NCBI GenBank assembly: GCA_964592405.1
Contig: CAZQBY010000002.1
Coordinates: 58,353 to 122,352, forward strand
DNA: 64,000 nt
Source: an uncultured archaeon
GTDB lineage: Archaea > Altiarchaeota > Altiarchaeia > JAFGQM01
Direction: 5' to 3'
The translations under genes were made by a program, and so were the position numbers. Below, piece after piece: positions 11,411-21,120 of this stretch. A model generated the notes under the pieces. It had not been told where the DNA came from. It made no database searches and saw nothing but the letters and a program-made list of their open reading frames with translations. Each line of letters begins with the position of its first letter. The stretch's first letter is position 1.

Positions 11411-11424
11411 CGCTGATTTAGAAA

Positions 11425-13455
11425 CTACTCGCTTAAAATCTTGGAGATATTACCTTCCTTGACAAACCGCACTACTTTATCCACAAAAGACTCTATTTTC
11501 GGCTCATGACTGACAATTATTGTCTGGCGATTGTTCAACTCATGAAGCACATCCCTGACAGAATCCATCTGATCATTTGAGAACCCGTCTGTTGGCTCAT
11601 CAAGTATAAGGAGGTCCTTGGTCCTTATTTTTTCAATCAGATCATTTATGACCCGGTTGAGGGCAAGCCTATAGGTTAGGGCTATAGCTGTTCTCTCGCC
11701 TCCGGACATAAAGGAGTAATCGGTCTCATAGCCGTTCTGCTCAATTACAACTGAAAAATTGTCATCTATGCGCGCACTCATATTGTCGTCCATTACGAGA
11801 GTGGAAAACCACTTCTGAAAGAGAGAGTTGAACTCATGTTGCACACTAACCATAACATGGCGCTCTATGTTTTCCATCAACTGGACGAAAGAGTCTGTCA
11901 GCCACTCATTGTATCTCATGTAGGATTCCATGAGCCTCTTCTTTTCCAGCTTATCTTTTATTTCCATGTCCAGCGATCTTATCTGCTCCTTCAAGCCAGC
12001 CGTTTTCTGCTTCACGGCCGATTCCCTCATCTGAAGCTCATTCACAATCCTTCTCAGCTCTTCAACTTTGTGTTGTTTCTTTTTGAAATCCTCTGGAGGA
12101 GTTTCATTTTTTATCTCCCGGGCAATGGAGTTTATCCTGTCGGCAAGTTCCCTGCGCCTTTTTTGTATGGATGTAATGTCCTGCATGTATTTTAACCTCT
12201 GGTCATTTAGACCTTTCTCCATCTCCCTCAGGGAATTCCTTTCTCTAAGGCGTGATTCATATCCTTGGACTTCCTCCAGTCGCTGCCGTAGTTTCTCTAG
12301 TTTTTTGCGCAACCCGTCCTGCCTCCTTCTAAGTTCCGCTATCTCAGATTTCTTTGCCTCAATGCCCCTCCTAAAAGACTTTCTATCAGCCACCGGCTGC
12401 TTACAGGTGCCACAAATGCCGGTCTTTAGAATCTCAGAAAGTGAAGCGACCTCTGTTTCGAGGGAGGCAATCTTGGAGATAATCTCCCTTTCACTCTTCT
12501 CTAAGGCAGATATGTCTGAAACTATCTCCTTCGCAGACTTTTCCGGCTTTTTGAGATCCTTGAAAGCTGAAAGTTTTTTGGCCAGCTCCTTCAGCTTGGC
12601 TCCAATGCCCTCCAGTGATTCTTCCAGTCGGGATTTTTGTCCATTCAGGGTCTCAAATTCGGCCTTGAGAGAGGCATACTCTTGTTTCTTCCTGCTGATG
12701 GCATCTGCCTTTTTCTGAAGCAGATCCAGTTCCTTTCTCTTGTCGTCAAGTATAGCCTGCTCCAGCTTTATCTTCTCTTCGAGCTCCCTGAGCACTTTTG
12801 TTTCGGCATTCAACTGGTCCGAAAGCCCCTTCCTCCGGGTCTGTTTTTCATCCAGATCCTGTATCGAACCGTGCAACTCCCTGATTCTGCCCCTCAGTTC
12901 GCGCGCAAACAGCTTGGCATTCTCGGCTATACGCTTGTATCTGTCCATACCAAAAAGCCTGCGTATAAGGTCAAGCCGCTCCTCCCGGTCAGCCTCTATG
13001 ATATGCCGCATCTGCTCCTGTGGGGTATAAACTGTATAGCGATATATAAGGGCACTGTTTTTCTTTAGGGCTTCTGGTGGATAACCCAGCAAGTCCAGCA
13101 CGAATGCGCGCAATTCCTGAGCAGTCATCTCTTTCTTCAGTCCATCAGCAATGATATAGCCGGAAGACTGGACAACTGTGTTCTTTCCCCTTTTGAGGGT
13201 TCTCCTGATAGTGTATTCCCTGCCACCAACCTCAAAGGTCAGCTCCACCGAACCCTGATCGCTTCCATGACGCAGGAGGCTGGCACCCGGCAGATTGGGC
13301 TTCTGTATGCCAAAGAGAGCAAAGTCTATTGCTAGAAGGATAGTACTCTTGCCGCTGCCTATGTCACCAGAGAGCAGCACAGACCCCTCTGGAAACCGTA
13401 TTTCGGCAGAATTATAACTGCGTATGTTCTCAAGCTTCAATCCCCTAAGGATCAT
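11425..13455 (-). CDS. rad50: Rad50 ATPase
   Basis: Walker A GDIGSGKST, coiled coil with CGTC zinc hook, MSGGE signature, LILDEPT Walker B. Confidence 0.95.
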   Translation of the reverse strand: MILRGLKLENIRSYNSAEIRFPEGSVLLSGDIGSGKSTILLAIDFALFGIQKPNLPGASLLRHGSDQGSVELTFEVGGREYTIRRTLKRGKNTVVQSSGYIIADGLKKEMTAQELRAFVLDLLGYPPEALKKNSALIYRYTVYTPQEQMRHIIEADREERLDLIRRLFGMDRYKRIAENAKLFARELRGRIRELHGSIQDLDEKQTRRKGLSDQLNAETKVLRELEEKIKLEQAILDDKRKELDLLQKKADAISRKKQEYASLKAEFETLNGQKSRLEESLEGIGAKLKELAKKLSAFKDLKKPEKSAKEIVSDISALEKSEREIISKIASLETEVASLSEILKTGICGTCKQPVADRKSFRRGIEAKKSEIAELRRRQDGLRKKLEKLRQRLEEVQGYESRLRERNSLREMEKGLNDQRLKYMQDITSIQKRRRELADRINSIAREIKNETPPEDFKKKQHKVEELRRIVNELQMRESAVKQKTAGLKEQIRSLDMEIKDKLEKKRLMESYMRYNEWLTDSFVQLMENIERHVMVSVQHEFNSLFQKWFSTLVMDDNMSARIDDNFSVVIEQNGYETDYSFMSGGERTAIALTYRLALNRVINDLIEKIRTKDLLILDEPTDGFSNDQMDSVRDVLHELNNRQTIIVSHEPKIESFVDKVVRFVKEGNISKILSE

Positions 13456-13509
13456 CTATTATTTAGAAACGGGGAGGGTAAAAGATTAACATTCTGCTTT
13501 TGATTTAGC

Positions 13510-14754
13510 TTAGCTTCCTGCCCTCATCCGGCTGGATCTCTGACTGGATCTGCGGCTGGGTATCTGATCTGGCCTTCGAGATCCCGGCTCACCCTCCCTA
13601 CGCATCCTGAAAAGCGTTATGACAACAATCGCCGCTATCAGTGCCAGCGCAATTACAGATGGCCAGGATCCTACACCCGGGGCAGACTCCCCAGCCGGTG
13701 CAACAGGAGACTCTGATTTGAAGACAACTCCCGCAACCTCCCTTGCTGTCTCTTCCACCTCTTTAGATTCTTGTACCGGCTCTGACTGTCCGGACTCTTT
13801 TGTTGCCTCTGGCTCTCCAGCCGGTTGGCCCTCTGTCCCAGGACTTGCACTCGAGACCGCCCAATCACTATAGTGCCCCCAGTCATGGGCATACCACTCG
13901 TATTCTAGGCCATTGACGCCCGCCTGGTAGGCTGTGTGCAGAACATCAGCTATGGCATTGATTATGTTATTGATGTTTCTTCCAGTGCACTCTATGAACT
14001 GTGGGTCATTCAAATCATAGTTGTTATCCATCCATTCAGCTGAGCAGGAGCCGTCTTTCCTTCCAAGATAGGTGGCCACACCCACCCTCAACACAGCATC
14101 ATAAGGCGATATGATCTCCAGTCTGCCGTCAAATTTTATATAGCTGCCGTATACCTCCTGAAACTCATCCGAGGGATATGTTATATCGGTCAGCCTGAGC
14201 ATATAGGTTTCGTAGTCAATGCCATGCTTTTTGTTGTCCAGAACCCGTGTGAATAAACCAGCATCTGAGATATATGATGCGATGACACCTGCCCATTTGG
14301 ATGCCGTGCCGGTGGCCCCAGATGCCAGAGAGTTGATGAGGAGCTCATATCTTTTCATAGAGCGCTTGGCCAGAGATGCGTCCAGAAGATTTCCTTTTTC
14401 ATCAAACCTTAGATATTGAGCCAATAGGTCATTTATACTCTCGGCATAGCCACTGCTATCAGGGAGTTCTGTGCCATAAAGATATAGTCTCTCACTGACC
14501 CATTCAGCCTCCTCAGGGGCCTGCCTGGCGAGCATTTCCAAGGCGGCCTTAGCAAAATAGTCATGGGTGCCAAACATGTTGGTTCTTTGCCACAACATTG
14601 GGTCATCCACAAATGTGGGCTCCCCCCACAAAGAATTGCCATTGCCCCAAGAAGAAACAGGAGGGATCATAGATAATGCAAAAAGCATGATAAGGGATAT
14701 CACAAAGAACCTGAATCCGGCCCTGGTGGGTGTGATCACAAACCTGGCTTCCAT
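13510..14754 (-). CDS. Secreted, C-terminally membrane-anchored protein with Zn-dependent phospholipase C / S1-P1 nuclease-like fold
   Basis: Signal peptide ending VSS-W; GTHD, ELPD, SYISD and HGIDYE motifs; Pro/Glu-rich linker; transmembrane helix followed by an Arg-rich tail. Confidence 0.65.
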   Translation of the reverse strand: MEARFVITPTRAGFRFFVISLIMLFALSMIPPVSSWGNGNSLWGEPTFVDDPMLWQRTNMFGTHDYFAKAALEMLARQAPEEAEWVSERLYLYGTELPDSSGYAESINDLLAQYLRFDEKGNLLDASLAKRSMKRYELLINSLASGATGTASKWAGVIASYISDAGLFTRVLDNKKHGIDYETYMLRLTDITYPSDEFQEVYGSYIKFDGRLEIISPYDAVLRVGVATYLGRKDGSCSAEWMDNNYDLNDPQFIECTGRNINNIINAIADVLHTAYQAGVNGLEYEWYAHDWGHYSDWAVSSASPGTEGQPAGEPEATKESGQSEPVQESKEVEETAREVAGVVFKSESPVAPAGESAPGVGSWPSVIALALIAAIVVITLFRMRREGEPGSRRPDQIPSRRSSQRSSRMRAGS

Positions 14755-14760
14755 ATATTG

Positions 14761-16035
14761 TTAATCAAAGCTTTTATTTAAATCCCCCCTATCGACGGTC
14801 TTCCCACTGATTATTGCATAGGCCTGAGAGTTTAATCTCTCCTCAAATGCCGAACTGGTTTCCCCTTCTGCCTTTTCAGTGTCAAATGCCGTAATAAAGC
14901 GTTTGATAAGCCATGCCTGCTTCTCATCCTTGGCATATTCCTCTATCAGGCGCCGTTCAAGGTTTTCCACGGTATCATGTGAAACCCTGACTTTTCCATA
15001 TTCTCTTGAGCTAAGCCCGCTGGTATTACGGAGGACAGCATACGCACCGTTCTCGTAGGCCATCTCCATATACCTTCGAAAATCTATATCAGTTGGCCGG
15101 CCTTCCTTAAGCGTGCCAAATACGCGCCAGAGGACTATCTGCCCGCCTTCTGATCCAGTCGCCGAGAGTCCAGAATTCAGGGTCTCTTTCGAACTGCTGG
15201 ATACTATCCTTTCCACACTCTGTGCAAGCTGAGCCTCTACCTCCCCGGGAGTCCTGCCATCAGCATTAATTTCATGGCATAAGATCGGATGAAGCACAAG
15301 TCTAATAAATGTGGGTTTGTTGTTATCTACAATAAAGAATCCGCATCCACTATCCGACAGATCCCACATCTCCCTGAAGTTGCAGGGAAAGATGGGTCCG
15401 GGGAATATCAGCCTCCCTCCATAGAAGTCAGTTTCGCTCCTGCGGTGTATATGTCCGCCGGCATAGTAGTCAAAACCCTTGGGAAGTAGCGACGCTGGTA
15501 TGCCCTCCACACGCTTCATATCCTCTGGTAGATAGTCCCTTATGCCTGAATGGAACATAAATATCTTATAGCCCTCACCCCTGCTTATGGAGCGGTCGAG
15601 TTCCCGATAGTATTGTTCTTCCAGGCCACCCTTCCTGCCAAACATGCCAACAATCATTGCTCCGGATTTGTCTTTGGTTGGATTCAGGACCAGTTTTCCA
15701 TTCTCTTCACTCCCCCTAGCCACATTCGTAATGAGCTCGGCATTCTCAAACACCCTGAGCATGGTTTTGCCTGAAGGGGAATAGTCATGCGAGCCGCAAA
15801 TTGTATAAACAGGAATTCCTGCTCTTTTGAGCAGGCTCAGCTTTTTTGAGACAAATGCCAGTGTATCAAGGGGTGGGACGGAGGTGTCAAACAGGTCGCC
15901 ACTTATGAGAATAAAATCAACATTCCGCTCTATGCAGATATCTACTGCCATCTCGAATGCCCTGAGATTTGCCTTCTGCAACTTTGGATCCCGCCACCCC
16001 CCCAGATGGAGGTCGGCCATGTGTGCAAATATCAT
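14761..16035 (-). CDS. mre11: Mre11 nuclease
   Basis: ADLHLG, GDLFD, GSHD and GGHIH motifs; ATG at 16035. Confidence 0.93.
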   Translation of the reverse strand: MIFAHMADLHLGGWRDPKLQKANLRAFEMAVDICIERNVDFILISGDLFDTSVPPLDTLAFVSKKLSLLKRAGIPVYTICGSHDYSPSGKTMLRVFENAELITNVARGSEENGKLVLNPTKDKSGAMIVGMFGRKGGLEEQYYRELDRSISRGEGYKIFMFHSGIRDYLPEDMKRVEGIPASLLPKGFDYYAGGHIHRRSETDFYGGRLIFPGPIFPCNFREMWDLSDSGCGFFIVDNNKPTFIRLVLHPILCHEINADGRTPGEVEAQLAQSVERIVSSSSKETLNSGLSATGSEGGQIVLWRVFGTLKEGRPTDIDFRRYMEMAYENGAYAVLRNTSGLSSREYGKVRVSHDTVENLERRLIEEYAKDEKQAWLIKRFITAFDTEKAEGETSSAFEERLNSQAYAIISGKTVDRGDLNKSFD

Positions 16036-16070
16036 TGTGACTACACTAAAATTATTCGGACTCACAAAAA

Positions 16071-16673
16071 TTACGGTTTTTCCTCCTCCCAGTCGGTATT
16101 TACATATCTGGTTATGTATTCAATAGGGACCTTGTTTATTGGAACCTGATGTACACTGCCATCCATAGCCCTAACCTCTGGTATGTGCCCGGGTTTCAGG
16201 CGGACCACTTCATAATCGCCGATTATGCCATGCTTCTTTGCCTTTTTGGCAGTCTCCGATATGTCCCTTATATACTCTTCGCTGACATTATTTAACATAC
16301 CTCCCGGGATTATGGTCAACTTTGTTTCGCTAGGCTCCCATATCCCAAGCCTGCTTTTCCCATGCCTTCCCTTAATCGCCCTCAGCATGAACCCCAGAAA
16401 ATCCTCCGGGTGGTGAAGCCGGTTTGTGACATTGACGACGTCTCCGCCCAACAGCCTGCTTATATCCCTCTCTGTGGGAAACTCTCGCATAGCCTTGGCG
16501 GACTGAGTAACCCTGTGACCAACAACTGCTCCCGGTTTTCCCGGCCTGTGAAGTACTATACCGGTGCAGATGCTGATTGGGGTATATATGGCATGGTGTT
16601 TGTTTGAAGCAACCACATAGCCGGACCCCAGCACCATTTTTTTTATCCTAGGCCTTGGAGACTTTGGAGGCAT
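16071..16673 (-). CDS. CheD/CNF1-fold deamidase-like orphan, copy 1
   Basis: YTPISICTGIV...VVGH and KLTIIPGGM align by eye with CheD TLGLGSCVAV...AMAH and AKIAGGASM; ATG 16673 lies 2 nt after the herA stop. Confidence 0.65.
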   Translation of the reverse strand: MPPKSPRPRIKKMVLGSGYVVASNKHHAIYTPISICTGIVLHRPGKPGAVVGHRVTQSAKAMREFPTERDISRLLGGDVVNVTNRLHHPEDFLGFMLRAIKGRHGKSRLGIWEPSETKLTIIPGGMLNNVSEEYIRDISETAKKAKKHGIIGDYEVVRLKPGHIPEVRAMDGSVHQVPINKVPIEYITRYVNTDWEEEKP

Positions 16674-16675
16674 TT

Positions 16676-18214
16676 TTATGAGAATTCCGACAGATCGGTC
16701 TTTGTCTGCCTGACAGACGATTGACATGAACCCGAGATAAAATCCCTATCAAACAGAGGGATGTGGACTGGAATGGCAAACTTTGTAAAGGTGGAGGTTA
16801 TCAGCGCCTCTCCCTTGTCCAGTGAGGCAATATTGCGTCCGTCCTTGCTAAGGTCTTGGGATGCACTCTCGATAATGGCACGCCTCTCCGGCTCCATCTC
16901 AATGCCCAATATTATCTTGGTGTTCATGTTGGCTAGGACCTCGCGCGGTATAAGGGATGGGAGCTGCGTTATCGCGATGAGGCCTATCTTGAACTTTCTA
17001 CCCTCCCGCGCAATGGTAGAGAAGATGTTCGGCCCGGCCTGCAACACGTCCTTCCCAAGGACGCGTGGAGCCTCCTCTATTATTATGGATATCACGGGCT
17101 TTGTGGAGAGCTTGCCATTCTTCTTGTAGTACTTGTACCTGTCCAGCGCCTCTGAGGCGACCATTGAGGATATGAGGAGTTCCAGCTCGCTGGAGAGTGG
17201 GGATGTGTCCACTATTACAGTCTTGCCCATCTCCAGTGCAGAAACCATGTTCTCCAGTGTATTCTCATACTTCTCCTCTGCAAAGACTCCCTCGCACTTG
17301 ACGGTACCGTCCTCCGATGATATGCCCAGTATGTTGAGTTTCCTTATCAGCACGGCAAGCGTTTCCTCCTTGACACCGGTAGCCGGTTCACCACTCAGTA
17401 TATTTGCCACCCACTCCTCCTTGTCCAATTTGTAGTATGTGAACAGCGCATCACGCTGGGCAGGTGAGAGATTGAGAACCCCTTGGAAGAACCACGGCTT
17501 CAGCAGGTGATAGTTTATCCTGAGCGTTTCCGCGCCAGCCGGCGGATTGGTGGAGTAATAGACAATTTTTTCTCCTGCCCTTGGGTGATTCCCCAGCCCC
17601 GCCTCTTTTCCGCCGGGGCCGTTGTAGTACTCATCATGCGGGTCAAGTATCAGCATACCGCAATAGTTCTTGTCAATGGCAGACCAAGACATTATTCTGA
17701 CAAGATTCGACTTGCCACGCCCGGTGGTGGCTGATATGAGGACATGGTGAGAGAGCACCTTCCTACCATCCAGCTCGACTGGTATGCCCATGTCTTTTGA
17801 TCCGGAGCGGATGTTGCCGACATAGAGGGCATTCTCCTCCCTGCCCAGGAAGTCCAGATCAGCCTTGTTTATCCTCCTGACAGGGCTGAAGAAGCTCGGC
17901 AACGTCTTGGGCATGCGCGCAATGCCTGCGTTTATGGACACCAGCCCTTTGACTTCTGCTAGAACATAATTGCGCAAGTCCGCCTCCATAAAGCCTAGAT
18001 CAGAGCCATGGCCCTCCAGTTCCATGCCGGAAAGCAGTTCCAGCGACTTTGGAGGTATCTGTGAGGCATAAAGGAGGTTGTATACCTGCAGAATGGTTTT
18101 TTTGTTGCCGTTCTCTGTCACAAGCAGCTCGCCCAGCTCCAGCTCCTCACCGCTTTTCTGGCGCACTAGAAGCTCGCCAAATTCCCCAGATAGAATCTGC
18201 CCAACTACTTCCAC
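16676..18214 (-). CDS. herA: HerA bipolar helicase
   Basis: N-terminal HAS barrel, [14 protein letters not shown] and [10 protein letters not shown]...ITQLP motifs. Confidence 0.93.
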
Positions 18215-18247
18215 TTTTGAGTTAATTTGACAAACATGGGAAATAAA

Positions 18248-18964
18248 TCACTGCCTTTCGACTAGTTTGAAGGGTATGTTTTGAAAATTTCTTTTGTAGA
18301 ATTTCTTTTTCCTCGACATCACAGCTTTGGACACCTTGGGGTGCTCGATTACTATCCCAAGTATCTGTTCTGGGCCGAATTTCTCGATTCCCCCCTGCTC
18401 TGGCTTTCCTGAACGTGTCATAGGGGCCATGATATGGAGAGTATATCTGTCACCCCTTATGGACTTGATAGACCTGGCATAAGGCAGATTTGGTGATGCC
18501 CAAGAGCTTGGGATTTTTCTCTCGTAAACCCTGTCAACATTGGGCCACCTTTCGGACCTGAATCCCTCTGAGAGTATAATTTTCAAAACCCCAAAGCTAT
18601 CTATCTTGTATGTTAGTGGGCGGATACCATGCATAACAGGATTCTGGTGCACAACAAAGCGCATTTTGCCCTTTGGGGAGCGGGCCACCCTAAAGTCCAC
18701 AACACCGTTTGGAAGACCAAAACTGAATATGTGCTGGCTTGCACTCCTCGTCTTCAGGTCCTGCATGCGGCGAATCACAGCCTCTTTCAGCCTTTTTGCA
18801 GTTTTCATCGCATGCGTTCTCTCGGAAAATTGCACCCCTGAATCCTCAAAAGCCGAGATTATCTTCTTTAGCGGCGTCCTGCGCGCATCTGTCAGTGTGC
18901 CCTCAAAAATGTGAAACGGCCTAGCCCCCCTAATCCTCTGTCTATGAAATCTTCTTATGGGCAT
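18248..18964 (-). CDS. Orphan basic protein with ADP-ribosyltransferase-like C-terminal domain
   Basis: VMHGI...ILSEGFRS...SWASPNLPYA...YTLHI...PEQILGI follows the ART/Tpt1-like motif order. Confidence 0.55.
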   Translation of the reverse strand: MPIRRFHRQRIRGARPFHIFEGTLTDARRTPLKKIISAFEDSGVQFSERTHAMKTAKRLKEAVIRRMQDLKTRSASQHIFSFGLPNGVVDFRVARSPKGKMRFVVHQNPVMHGIRPLTYKIDSFGVLKIILSEGFRSERWPNVDRVYERKIPSSWASPNLPYARSIKSIRGDRYTLHIMAPMTRSGKPEQGGIEKFGPEQILGIVIEHPKVSKAVMSRKKKFYKRNFQNIPFKLVERQ

Positions 18965-18987
18965 GTGAAAGTTAGAAGGGATAGGTA

Positions 18988-20094
18988 TTAAACCATTCTG
19001 TCCAGCCAGTCATGGGCATCACTTGCAGCGAGCAGGTCCGTGAAATCCTGAAAATCGCCGGTTCTGGATATCTCAGAGAATAACAGCATGCGAAGACTGT
19101 CCAGACCCTCCCGGCGGATTCGGGCATTCTTGTCTGCATCAATGAGGCCATATGGATATCCCGGAAATGTGATATCCCTGGAATTTGCAGCAATAGCAGA
19201 CATTATCCTTTCTTTCTGATCCTCCTGTCCCTGCAGTACTTCCACCCTGAGGGTATATCGGCTTTGTGGATGGAAGCAGGCAAAGTTCAGGTCTGCCCTG
19301 TGTGCCGTATCAGTGATATCCACAATGTTCTCATAATACCATGGCGCATGCACTCCATTTTCGCGTGCAAGTCTGTTTATGGCCACTGTAAGCGGTAGCC
19401 CGGATGTCGTATAGAGATGGGAGGTCTTTGAGATACCGCAAAACAGCACATTCTGCCTGTGTGCGGCATCATAGGCAGCCTCCGCATACCCAATCTGGTT
19501 TGTGTATGGTGCATGGAGCGTTCCGTCCCTGATGAATATACTGCCATCTGGCAGGGCACGACAGACAAAGGAGGCATAGTTCCACTCGGCAAAAGAGCGC
19601 GCAACATCGCCAACCCGTGGTATTCTTATCTGTTCCAAACCCTCTCTTATTGTCTTATCATAGGAATCAAAAACCAGATCTTCTTCATTGGGCAGATATT
19701 GGGCATGCTCCTTATGCAACGGAATAAAAGTGTTTTTATATTCTATTTGATTACCATTGCCCTCCCCATCCACACCGGCGGCAGTTGTGATGACAAAAAA
19801 TTCCAGCCTGTTTGGAATACCCAGCCTGATGCGCTTGTTATCCTGAAAACAGCTTACATATATCCTTTCAAAGTGTACTGCAAACGATGGCGCCTGTATC
19901 AACGCCATATTGCCGCCATCCAGAAAAGCTATAATTGTATCACGGTCGTGTGGGGAGGGAATCCTCCTGAAGTTCTTTGCATCAAAGTCCCTTGCCTTAT
20001 AATGGTCTTCCGGCCGGAAACTGGGCCTACCTAGGGGTAAATCAACTACCTGATCAGCTATATGTGCAACCCTCTTGGCAGCATCGGTTATCAT
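18988..20094 (-). CDS. nurA: NurA nuclease
   Basis: AFLDGG, IFIRDG, GISKTS and GYPYGL motifs; position upstream of herA. Confidence 0.9.
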   Translation of the reverse strand: MITDAAKRVAHIADQVVDLPLGRPSFRPEDHYKARDFDAKNFRRIPSPHDRDTIIAFLDGGNMALIQAPSFAVHFERIYVSCFQDNKRIRLGIPNRLEFFVITTAAGVDGEGNGNQIEYKNTFIPLHKEHAQYLPNEEDLVFDSYDKTIREGLEQIRIPRVGDVARSFAEWNYASFVCRALPDGSIFIRDGTLHAPYTNQIGYAEAAYDAAHRQNVLFCGISKTSHLYTTSGLPLTVAINRLARENGVHAPWYYENIVDITDTAHRADLNFACFHPQSRYTLRVEVLQGQEDQKERIMSAIAANSRDITFPGYPYGLIDADKNARIRREGLDSLRMLLFSEISRTGDFQDFTDLLAASDAHDWLDRMV

Positions 20095-21068: not shown

Positions 21069-21120
21069 CTTGTTACCTCACTTGAAAACCTATATTTAAA
21101 CTCTTTCCCATAAAAAACTT

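Follow-up and report, generated by a model that had tools for sequence, protein, structure and literature searches.

Clade-specific genes at the junctions of a nurA-herA-mre11-rad50 array in an uncultured altiarchaeal lineage

Introduction

The archaeal end-resection operon is usually regarded as a fixed four-gene unit. Linkage of herA, mre11, rad50 and nurA has been stated for archaea such as Sulfolobus and Pyrococcus (PMC2288612). A 64,000-nucleotide stretch from an uncultured archaeon of the Altiarchaeota (GenBank assembly GCA_964592405.1, contig CAZQBY010000002.1, positions 58,353 to 122,352; the whole stretch is hereafter called the window) carries all four of these families, co-oriented and recognized by Pfam and NCBIfam models. 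The four genes are not directly adjacent: each of the three internal junctions holds one extra gene, here named ins1, ins2 and ins3. In the literature searched, no description of such an interleaved nurA-herA-mre11-rad50 operon was found. An earlier note on this DNA, made from the letters alone, had offered two explanations: either a break-induced operon had recruited protein-modifying enzymes and a surface hydrolase as a damage-coupled defence or effector module, or an essential operon was serving as a safe harbour for accessory genes. Which of these, if either, accounts for genes threaded so tightly among repair genes?

Judging from gene order and homology in related genomes, neither does so fully. 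We consider it rather probable that the array is a compact, co-directional row of genes built on a nurA-herA-mre11-rad50 backbone, whose junctions have, over a long period, acquired and shed genes particular to the clade. The genes of such a row would fall into age classes. A Zn-ribbon gene, zr324, translationally coupled to nurA, and ins3 would be fixed old residents; ins2 would be old but dispensable, as would two further genes of relatives, ins4 before rad50 and ins5 after ins2 or before mre11; and ins1, found in two lineages only, would be a young addition. The position of ins3 may be maintained by a promoter-like element at the 3' end of mre11 together with the conserved gene order of the clade.

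Gene order in related genomes

A scan of a genome collection with HerA returned 80 loci, the closest of them from archaeal metagenome-assembled genomes (MAGs), one labelled Candidatus Altiarchaeota; the HerA of the window is 52-79% identical to the HerA of these 80 archaeal genomes. Gene orders within the clade were derived from tblastn, open reading frame (ORF) maps and context look-ups. In the window, nine co-oriented genes follow one another on the minus strand: zr324, nurA, ins1, herA, ins2, mre11, ins3, rad50 and hisE. The minimal form, zr-nurA-herA-mre11-ins3-rad50-hisE, occurs in locus L087; ins2 is added to that order in L001, and both ins1 and ins2 are added to an order of that type in the window and in L081/84, while three further loci (L089, L090, L091) read herA-ins2 onwards. 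Other relatives carry other genes at the same junctions: mre11-o612-o938-ins3-o253-rad50 in L002, where o612 and o938 are large orphans, herA-o100-mre11-ins3-o198-rad50-uvdE in L003, and mre11-ins3-o160-rad50 in L004. Locus L086 reads zr-o268-mre11-ins3-o365-rad50-hisE and has no nurA or herA; evidently that half of the cluster is open to loss or relocation. In terms of the comparison across relatives proposed in the earlier note, which asked whether the inserts are fixed, swapped or absent, ins3 is fixed, ins2 is sometimes absent, and other genes are found at the same junctions.

The fixed components are conserved in detail. NurA orthologues (51-65% identity) hold the same position, and an orthologue of zr324 lies directly upstream of nurA in L001-L004, L007, L081-L084 and L087 and ahead of the remaining array in L086; in every clade locus seen that has nurA, the two genes overlap at ATGA. 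Among the loci fetched from outside the clade, zr324 was not found. Between mre11 and rad50, ins3 is present in all nine clade loci in which this stretch is visible. The ins4 genes, which are mutually homologous (E 1e-8 to 1e-65), lie ahead of rad50 in five relatives and encode Cys-rich proteins with an N-terminal anchor; the window lacks ins4, and the mre11-rad50 junction of those five relatives thus holds two exported proteins. The ins5 genes, carried by L081/84, L091 and L086, encode weakly related basic proteins and follow ins2 in L084 and L091 or precede mre11 in L086. A stretch resembling a helix-turn-helix is visible by eye in the L084 member (o283), and ins5 might be a local regulator. 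The identities of ins1 (65%) and ins3 (67%) are similar to those of the flanking core genes (61-79%), whereas ins2 diverges faster (36-61%). Conservation of gene order extends about 10 kb to each side of the array and includes genes for HDAC, diphthamide synthase, RpoL, Endo_dU, PCNA and the tRNA-intron endonuclease.

Backbone genes vary in a few places. Rad50 orthologues have 672-676 amino acids (aa), except for the 740 aa of L004, and hisE follows rad50 in L001, L086 and L087 as it does in the window. In L003 the place of hisE after rad50 is taken by a gene for the UV-damage endonuclease UvdE (PF03851, E 3e-59), a repair gene added to the array. The HerA of L007 (77-79% identical) contains an insertion of about 535 aa after the Walker A residues GRGK, which begins with Ser, ends with HN followed by Ser, and contains the LAGLIDADG-like segments LFGYYIAEGY and LLGAYFDGDG; these features suggest an intein that carries a homing endonuclease.

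Authenticity of the inserts and their junctions

Assemblies of different samples in ENA, Logan and JGI contain an identical ins1 gene flanked by the same gaps of 23 and 33 nt. A 99% identical homologue of ins2 and an identical ins3 protein are recorded in a protein collection, on 3-kb and 125-kb contigs. The inserts fall within the range of the window's genes in both GC content and GC content at third codon positions (GC3); recent horizontal transfer of the inserts is not suggested, their base composition being native. Because homologues exist, assemblies agree and composition is in range, the inserts are genuine genes native to this genome, and their junctions are no product of chimeric assembly. 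Misassembly at the junctions, which the earlier note had raised as a concern, is not borne out, the nurA-ins1-herA junction being the same in three independent assemblies. Spurious ORFs or a chimeric assembly are accordingly a very improbable explanation: their sole support is that the inserts lack a family annotation, and homologues of all three keep an open frame at 36-67% identity, except for the frameshifted ins2 of L081/84/85 described below.

Gene calls and spacing

Coordinates (Table 1) and gaps were taken from a mechanical ORF list, its translations and the junction sequences of the window. From nurA to rad50 the gaps are 23, 33, 2, 35, 6 and 54 nt, and rad50 and hisE are separated by 14 nt; the gene order, shared orientation and six gaps given in the earlier note match these data. 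A fifth co-oriented gene ahead of nurA, zr324, lay outside the region covered by that note and had been missed; its stop codon and the nurA start codon share ATGA, a 1-nt overlap. The 2-nt and 35-nt gaps hinge on the choice of start codon, namely ATG 16673 for ins2 and ATG 16035 for mre11. The mechanical list begins ins2 at ATG 16727, overlapping herA, and mre11 at GTG 16065; the shorter forms are backed by homologues opening with MPP... and M.FAH. Read from the translations, the N-terminus of Mre11 carries MIFAHMADLHLG, with a D.H phosphoesterase motif, and Rad50 has a CGTC motif of the zinc-hook type (CxxC) in the middle of the protein. An Rfam scan of the window gave no matches.

Table 1. 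Genes and promoter-like elements of the array, with further features of related loci. Scores and P values are those of the TATA position weight matrix (PWM) for the region ahead of each gene; positions without a locus name refer to the window.
Feature	Position	Strand	Basis or remark	PWM score (bits)	P
zr324, Zn-ribbon, Pro-rich linker and C-terminal domain without assignment, 324 aa	20094..21068	-	PF13240, E 1.8e-8	8.2	0.006
nurA, 368 aa	18988..20094	-	PF09376, 23.5 bits (cut-off 21)	4.0	0.11
ins1, basic orphan, 238 aa	18248..18964	-	homologue clusters; between nurA and herA	9.4	0.002 (best of the array)
herA, 512 aa, GTG start	16676..18214	-	PF01935 (DUF87), E 1.5e-23, and HerA NCBIfam models	5.0	0.066 (marginal)
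ins2, small basic protein, 200 aa	16071..16673	-	2 nt past the herA stop; family alignment	-0.8	0.58 (no promoter-like site)
mre11, 424 aa from ATG 16035	14761..16035	-	Metallophos, E 1.6e-14, and Mre11 NCBIfam models	4.2-5.1	0.06-0.10
ins3, predicted membrane-anchored extracytoplasmic protein, 414 aa	13510..14754	-	homologues; transitive PF00882 link	7.7	0.008
rad50, short coiled coil, 676 aa	11425..13455	-	Rad50 NCBIfam 1.6e-47, AAA_23, SMC_N	3.8	0.12
hisE, phosphoribosyl-ATP diphosphatase, 97 aa	11117..11410	-	PF01503, 6e-20; TIGR03188	4.4	0.09
TATA-like element GAGTTTAAAT / TTTAAATA	21093..21103	-	about 32 nt 5' of zr324		
TATA-like element ATGGTTTAAT	18987..18996	-	spans the nurA stop codon, about 32 nt 5' of ins1		
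Element TGATTTATTTC, ins1 stop codon and T-rich TATA-like run	18240..18250	-	about 33 nt 5' of herA		
TATA-like element GGATTTAAATA	14775..14785	-	in the last mre11 codons (D-L-N-K), about 28 nt 5' of ins3; perfect TTTAAATA match		
ins4 (o253)	L002:19290-20051				
ins4 (o198)	L003:11287-11883				
ins4 (o160)	L004:7561-8043				
ins4 (o365)	L086:9295-10392				
ins4 (o240)	L089:3589-4311				
ins5 (o268)	L086:5976-6782				
ins5 (o147)	L091:739-1179				
ins5 (o283)	L084:5257-6108				
ins2, frameshifted	L081:12300-12886		also in L084 and L085		
uvdE	L003:13933-14817		after rad50		
herA with insertion	L007:3106-6258				
Array without nurA and herA	L086:5019-12767				

ins2, a rare family with a conserved Cys-His pair

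The ins2 protein has an isoelectric point (pI) of 9.8 and belongs to a rare family. Two homologues are 99% and 61% identical, and a full HMMER search added eight more small proteins; the search gave 13 matches among 1.84 billion representatives, for a family of about 10 and a ten-member alignment. Family members share the block C.G.VLH..GKPGAVV.HR (C-x17-H), in which the Cys is present in every member covering the stretch and the His is invariant in the ten-member alignment. This conserved pair suggests catalysis.

The gene lies directly 3' of herA in six lineages (window, L001, L081/84/85, L089, L090 and L091). In five of the six, its start codon lies between -4 and +5 nt relative to the herA stop, and the gene overlaps mre11 or ends close to it. 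Four relatives with intact core genes (L002, L003, L004 and L087) lack ins2. In L081, L084 and L085, assemblies that are possibly not independent samples, a 1-nt deletion between the Cys and the His divides the gene into two frames; the remainder is 61% identical to the window copy, and the frameshift may represent recent pseudogenisation.

The label "CheD-like" given to ins2 in the earlier note was not upheld. Neither CheD (PF03975) nor any other Pfam family matched any of the 10 family members up to E 10, and the family profile had no match when run against the PDB. An AlphaFold2 (AF2) model built from 3 sequences reached a predicted local distance difference test score (pLDDT) of 41.6, too low for the model to be used. 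The protein is similar in size to the chemoreceptor glutamine deamidase CheD, and the spacing of its Cys and His resembles that in CheD, whose catalytic centre is of the Cys-His-Thr type, a likeness that is a lead only. Unlike CheD, ins2 sits among DNA-repair genes rather than chemotaxis genes.

ins3, a degenerate relative of zinc phospholipase C

The ins3 protein has 31 homologues. It is hydrophobic in two places, at an N-terminal leader and in a C-terminal helix that begins near residue 358, and its predicted layout comprises a signal peptide, a domain resembling Zn-dependent phospholipase C (PLC), an acidic linker, a C-terminal transmembrane helix and a basic tail. The predicted mature N-terminus is W36 (WGNG). 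A motif of the form A/S-W-G/S-N-G follows the hydrophobic leader in 18 of 20 aligned family members, the remaining two being truncated, and cleavage of the signal peptide would leave an N-terminal Trp.

The relationship to PLC is distant. No direct match of ins3 to PF00882 or PF02265 was found in Pfam up to E 10; distant homologues (30% identity, E about 1e-24; P0026-P0031) do carry PF00882, so that the link is transitive only. Run against the PDB, a profile of these PF00882-positive cousins found Bacillus cereus PLC as its sole target, weakly (E 0.04-0.4), in an alignment spanning the known ligand motifs; a profile of the ins3 family itself gave low-complexity or transmembrane-tail matches only.

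The nine zinc ligands of Bacillus cereus PLC (W1, H14, D55, H69, H118, D122, H128, H142 and E146) were mapped from PDB 1AH7 onto the ins3 alignment. Five of the nine are kept in the window protein (W36, H64, D109, D164 and E182) and four are replaced (Y114, S160, R170 and G178). The same pattern holds in the operon-resident clade, where W1, H14, D55, D/N122 and E146 are retained and H69, H118, H128 and H142 have become Y, S/A, R and G; two deeper-branching members, one of them from L087, still have H69 and H118, and the cousins outside the operon retain all nine ligands. The PF00882-positive cousin found outside the clade is not in an operon of the nurA-herA-mre11-rad50 type. Compared with the Bacillus cereus enzyme, ins3 likewise has a signal peptide followed by a predicted mature Trp and equivalents of H14, D55, D122 and E146; it differs in lacking a direct Pfam match, in the replacement of the four His equivalents, and in an added C-terminal transmembrane anchor and basic tail. 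We infer that ins3 is an exported, membrane-anchored derivative of the PLC type whose tri-zinc centre is not intact. Because four zinc ligands are replaced, its catalytic activity as a hydrolase is doubtful. Most likely ins3 is an envelope protein unrelated to break repair. The description "secreted PLC/S1-P1-like" in the earlier note therefore stands at the level of superfamily or fold, through the PF00882 homologues, and not as a statement of hydrolase activity.

ins1, a basic orphan

The ins1 protein is strongly basic (pI 11.3; 20.6% Lys plus Arg). Among 5.8 billion proteins it is represented by two clusters only, 100% and 65% identical, both situated between nurA and herA, and the gene is confined to the lineage of the window and L081. 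Its AF2 model has a pLDDT of 62 and a predicted template modelling score (pTM) of 0.44. Foldseek comparison of the model with the PDB and BFVD gave no match at E <= 0.001; the lone entry with the fold of the ADP-ribosyltransferases (ARTs), Tpt1, appeared at rank 26 with a probability of 0.30 for a model of pLDDT 62. As no Pfam, NCBIfam, PADLOC, PHROG or PDB sequence match and no significant fold match was found, the earlier description of ins1 as "ART-like" is not sustained. The same five sequence searches (Pfam up to E 10) were likewise negative for ins2 and ins3; PADLOC reported generic HerA and SMC-like similarities of the core genes only and left the inserts unmatched. In L081:9950-10000 the sequence TGGTTTAA is found twice, 8 nt apart, at the nurA stop codon and in the ins1 promoter-like site, and it occurs once in the window; the L081 repeat is a small duplication where ins1 joins nurA.

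Promoter-like elements and transcription

Many genes of the window have a (G/C)TTTWWWW element 25-37 nt ahead of the start codon. A 10-nt TATA PWM was trained on 35 window genes outside the array, with random intragenic positions as the null, and applied to each array gene (Table 1). The element upstream of zr324 is likely to be the main promoter of the array, and CTTAAATATAGG is kept upstream of the zr324 orthologue in L001, L081, L004, L002 and L086. Upstream of ins1, ATGGTTTAATACC is found in L081 and L093 as well as in the window. An TGATTTATTT(T)C element precedes herA in L001, L081, L002, L003 and L093, irrespective of whether nurA or ins1 comes before it. Ahead of ins3, GATTTAAATAA lies in the last mre11 codons (D-L-N-K) in the window, L001, L004, L086 and L090, and (G/A)ATTTAAAT is present in L001, L004, L086, L090, L003 and L089; in L003 it occupies the extreme 3' end of mre11, and in L089 it lies outside coding sequence. 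Because it is non-coding in L089, the ins3 element is constrained as DNA and not as protein.

With respect to a single polycistronic operon, the test is one of motifs: TATA-like sites stand ahead of ins1 and ins3 and are conserved in relatives. The array is probably transcribed in segments. The first would comprise zr324-nurA, expressed from the upstream TATA box; the second, ins1, from the TATA-like site over the nurA stop codon; the third, herA-ins2 and possibly mre11, as a coupled unit; and the fourth, ins3 and possibly rad50 and hisE, from the TATA-like element in or just after the 3' end of mre11. The earlier note had stated that independent promoters and terminators for each insert would speak against its proposal. 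The promoter side of that statement is supported for ins1 and ins3 (P 0.002 and 0.008, with conservation); nothing comparable was found for terminators, the candidates within the array being weak T-runs only (T5 after ins2 and TTTATTT after ins1).

Two further signals lie closer to the genes. The sequence TTTCTAAAT stands 5-14 nt ahead of the rad50 and hisE starts (window 11411-11445 and 13456-13490, minus strand). Motifs of the TAA(C/T) type are found about 8-12 nt ahead of most array starts and of many other genes of the window, and may be a proximal promoter or initiation signal of leaderless mRNAs.

The array outside the clade

The core genes follow one another in the same order in Bathyarchaeota, Thermoproteota and Nitrososphaeria, where the gaps are about 5-66 nt and hold no inserts, and the window HerA is 52-57% identical to Bathyarchaeota/Thermoproteota orthologues from tight clusters of this kind. 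The window thus shares with the archaeal end-resection operon the same four families, co-oriented and clustered. It differs from the arrangement of Sulfolobus and Pyrococcus in its order, nurA-herA-mre11-rad50, in the Zn-ribbon gene in front, in the extra gene at each junction and in its short Rad50 (676 aa), and its internal promoter-like sites suggest several transcription units.

Among 50 loci holding both herA and mre11, the two genes are 203-5733 nt apart in 33 and about 9-126 nt apart in the remaining 17. Three of the wide gaps are found in the window's clade; the others belong to Woesearchaeota-, Nanoarchaeota- and related DPANN-type genomes, and they hold 1-4 genes each. Across DPANN-type genomes the length of this junction is hypervariable (9-5733 nt). 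The junction ORFs are diverse: 64 of them form 54 clusters, and of the 54 that reach 100 aa, 19 are encoded on the opposite strand. Besides many orphans, they encode a HepT-like ribonuclease and a nucleotidyltransferase that may form a toxin-antitoxin pair, together with a DNA methylase, an HNH nuclease, tyrosine phosphatases and a GGDEF protein. In these Woesearchaeota and Nanoarchaeota loci (L008-L080), nurA and rad50 were mostly not detected beside herA and mre11.

Discussion

How much shared function can be read from this arrangement depends on what ordinary spacing looks like in this genome. Outside the array, neighbouring genes on the same strand of the window are separated by a median of 40 nt (interquartile range 6.5-121), so the gaps of the array are ordinary. 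The histidine-biosynthesis gene hisE serves as a control, being unrelated in function and attached to rad50 equally tightly. Since the gaps are ordinary, hisE is equally attached and gene order is conserved for about 10 kb on each side, positional conservation alone cannot establish shared function here. Several points nevertheless weigh against a row of genes that merely turns over at its junctions. The strict placement of ins3 in nine of nine loci, and the recurrence of another exported protein, ins4, at the same junction, may have a functional cause, and the Cys-His pair of ins2 suggests catalysis; ins1 and ins2 are without an assigned fold, and an enzymatic role on repair proteins is possible. 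The promoter calls come from a motif model of 35 genes, the P values of 0.002-0.008 must survive about 10 tests, and the sites of herA, mre11, rad50 and hisE are marginal (P 0.06-0.12).

One alternative is that the inserts are dedicated accessory subunits or regulators of the end-resection machinery, an explanation that we regard as unlikely but the most serious of the alternatives. Under it, ins2 would act on HerA or Mre11 as a hydrolase or deamidase of the Cys-His type, and ins1 would be a basic DNA-binding or modifying factor, as its very high pI would allow, and ins3 a tether of the complex to the envelope, for example in the handling of extracellular DNA. The translational coupling of ins2 to herA, its unvarying position between herA and mre11 in six lineages, its conserved Cys and His, and the ATGA overlap of zr324 with nurA all speak for it, as does the fact that ins3 is never found elsewhere within the clade and that its PF00882-positive cousin beyond the clade lies in no such operon. 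Similarity to ART and CheD was looked for without success, however; ins2 is frameshifted in one lineage and absent from four loci, ins1 is limited to two lineages, and ins3 is predicted to be exported, has lost four Zn ligands and has its own promoter-like site. No insert matches a PADLOC defence model, and hisE demonstrates that tight, conserved adjacency in this array does not imply shared function. This explanation corresponds to the damage-coupled module of the earlier note, and nothing in the results supported it as a defence or effector module.

Variable hot spots of accessory genes between conserved core genes, of the defence-island or integration type, are known in prokaryotes, and the inserts could instead be recent, unrelated and possibly mobile cargo at such a site. 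The clade does show variable occupancy at each junction (o612, o938, o100, ins1, ins4, ins5), and the herA-mre11 junction of Woesearchaeota and Nanoarchaeota, with its conserved flanks, wide gaps in 33 of 50 loci, frequent opposite-strand genes and variable, often orphan cargo, has the appearance of a hot spot. The clade itself fits this poorly: ins3 and ins2 are of long standing and have diverged together with the backbone, the cargo is co-oriented throughout, ins2, ins3 and ins4 have been inherited vertically over long periods, and the GC and GC3 of the inserts are native. None of the inserts has a PHROG, Pfam, NCBIfam or PADLOC match, and no search was aimed specifically at junction repeats, tRNA genes, integrases, transposases or further marks of mobility. 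Recent cargo is therefore improbable as an account of this array. The safe-harbour suggestion of the earlier note agrees with the comparative data better than a damage module does, provided that ins3, and probably ins2, are seen as old vertical residents rather than recent insertions, which returns the argument to a backbone with slow gain and loss of clade-specific genes.

Within that preferred reading, the coupling of ins2 to herA and mre11 and of zr324 to nurA suggests that these two proteins are the only plausible functional partners of HerA/Mre11 and NurA, respectively. A stronger version, in which HerA-NurA and Mre11-Rad50 have gained a full set of dedicated partners (the Zn-ribbon protein with NurA, ins2 with HerA and Mre11, and an envelope-linking ins3, often accompanied by ins4), is quite unlikely. 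If it were true, ins2 could be a hydrolase or deamidase regulating HerA and Mre11, and ins3 would link Mre11-Rad50 to the envelope, for instance where imported DNA is processed.

In compact archaeal genomes, short gaps and shared orientation are thus no proof of a common transcript or a common function: in this array hisE and the PLC-like ins3, predicted to be exported, sit as close to their neighbours as the repair genes do. Promoter-like elements in or beside the end of an upstream gene may fix gene order without a functional link. In what is usually taken to be a four-gene unit, a whole clade threads up to five further genes through the end-resection operon, and among these the ins2 family and the Zn-ribbon protein are concrete candidate partners of HerA, NurA or Mre11.

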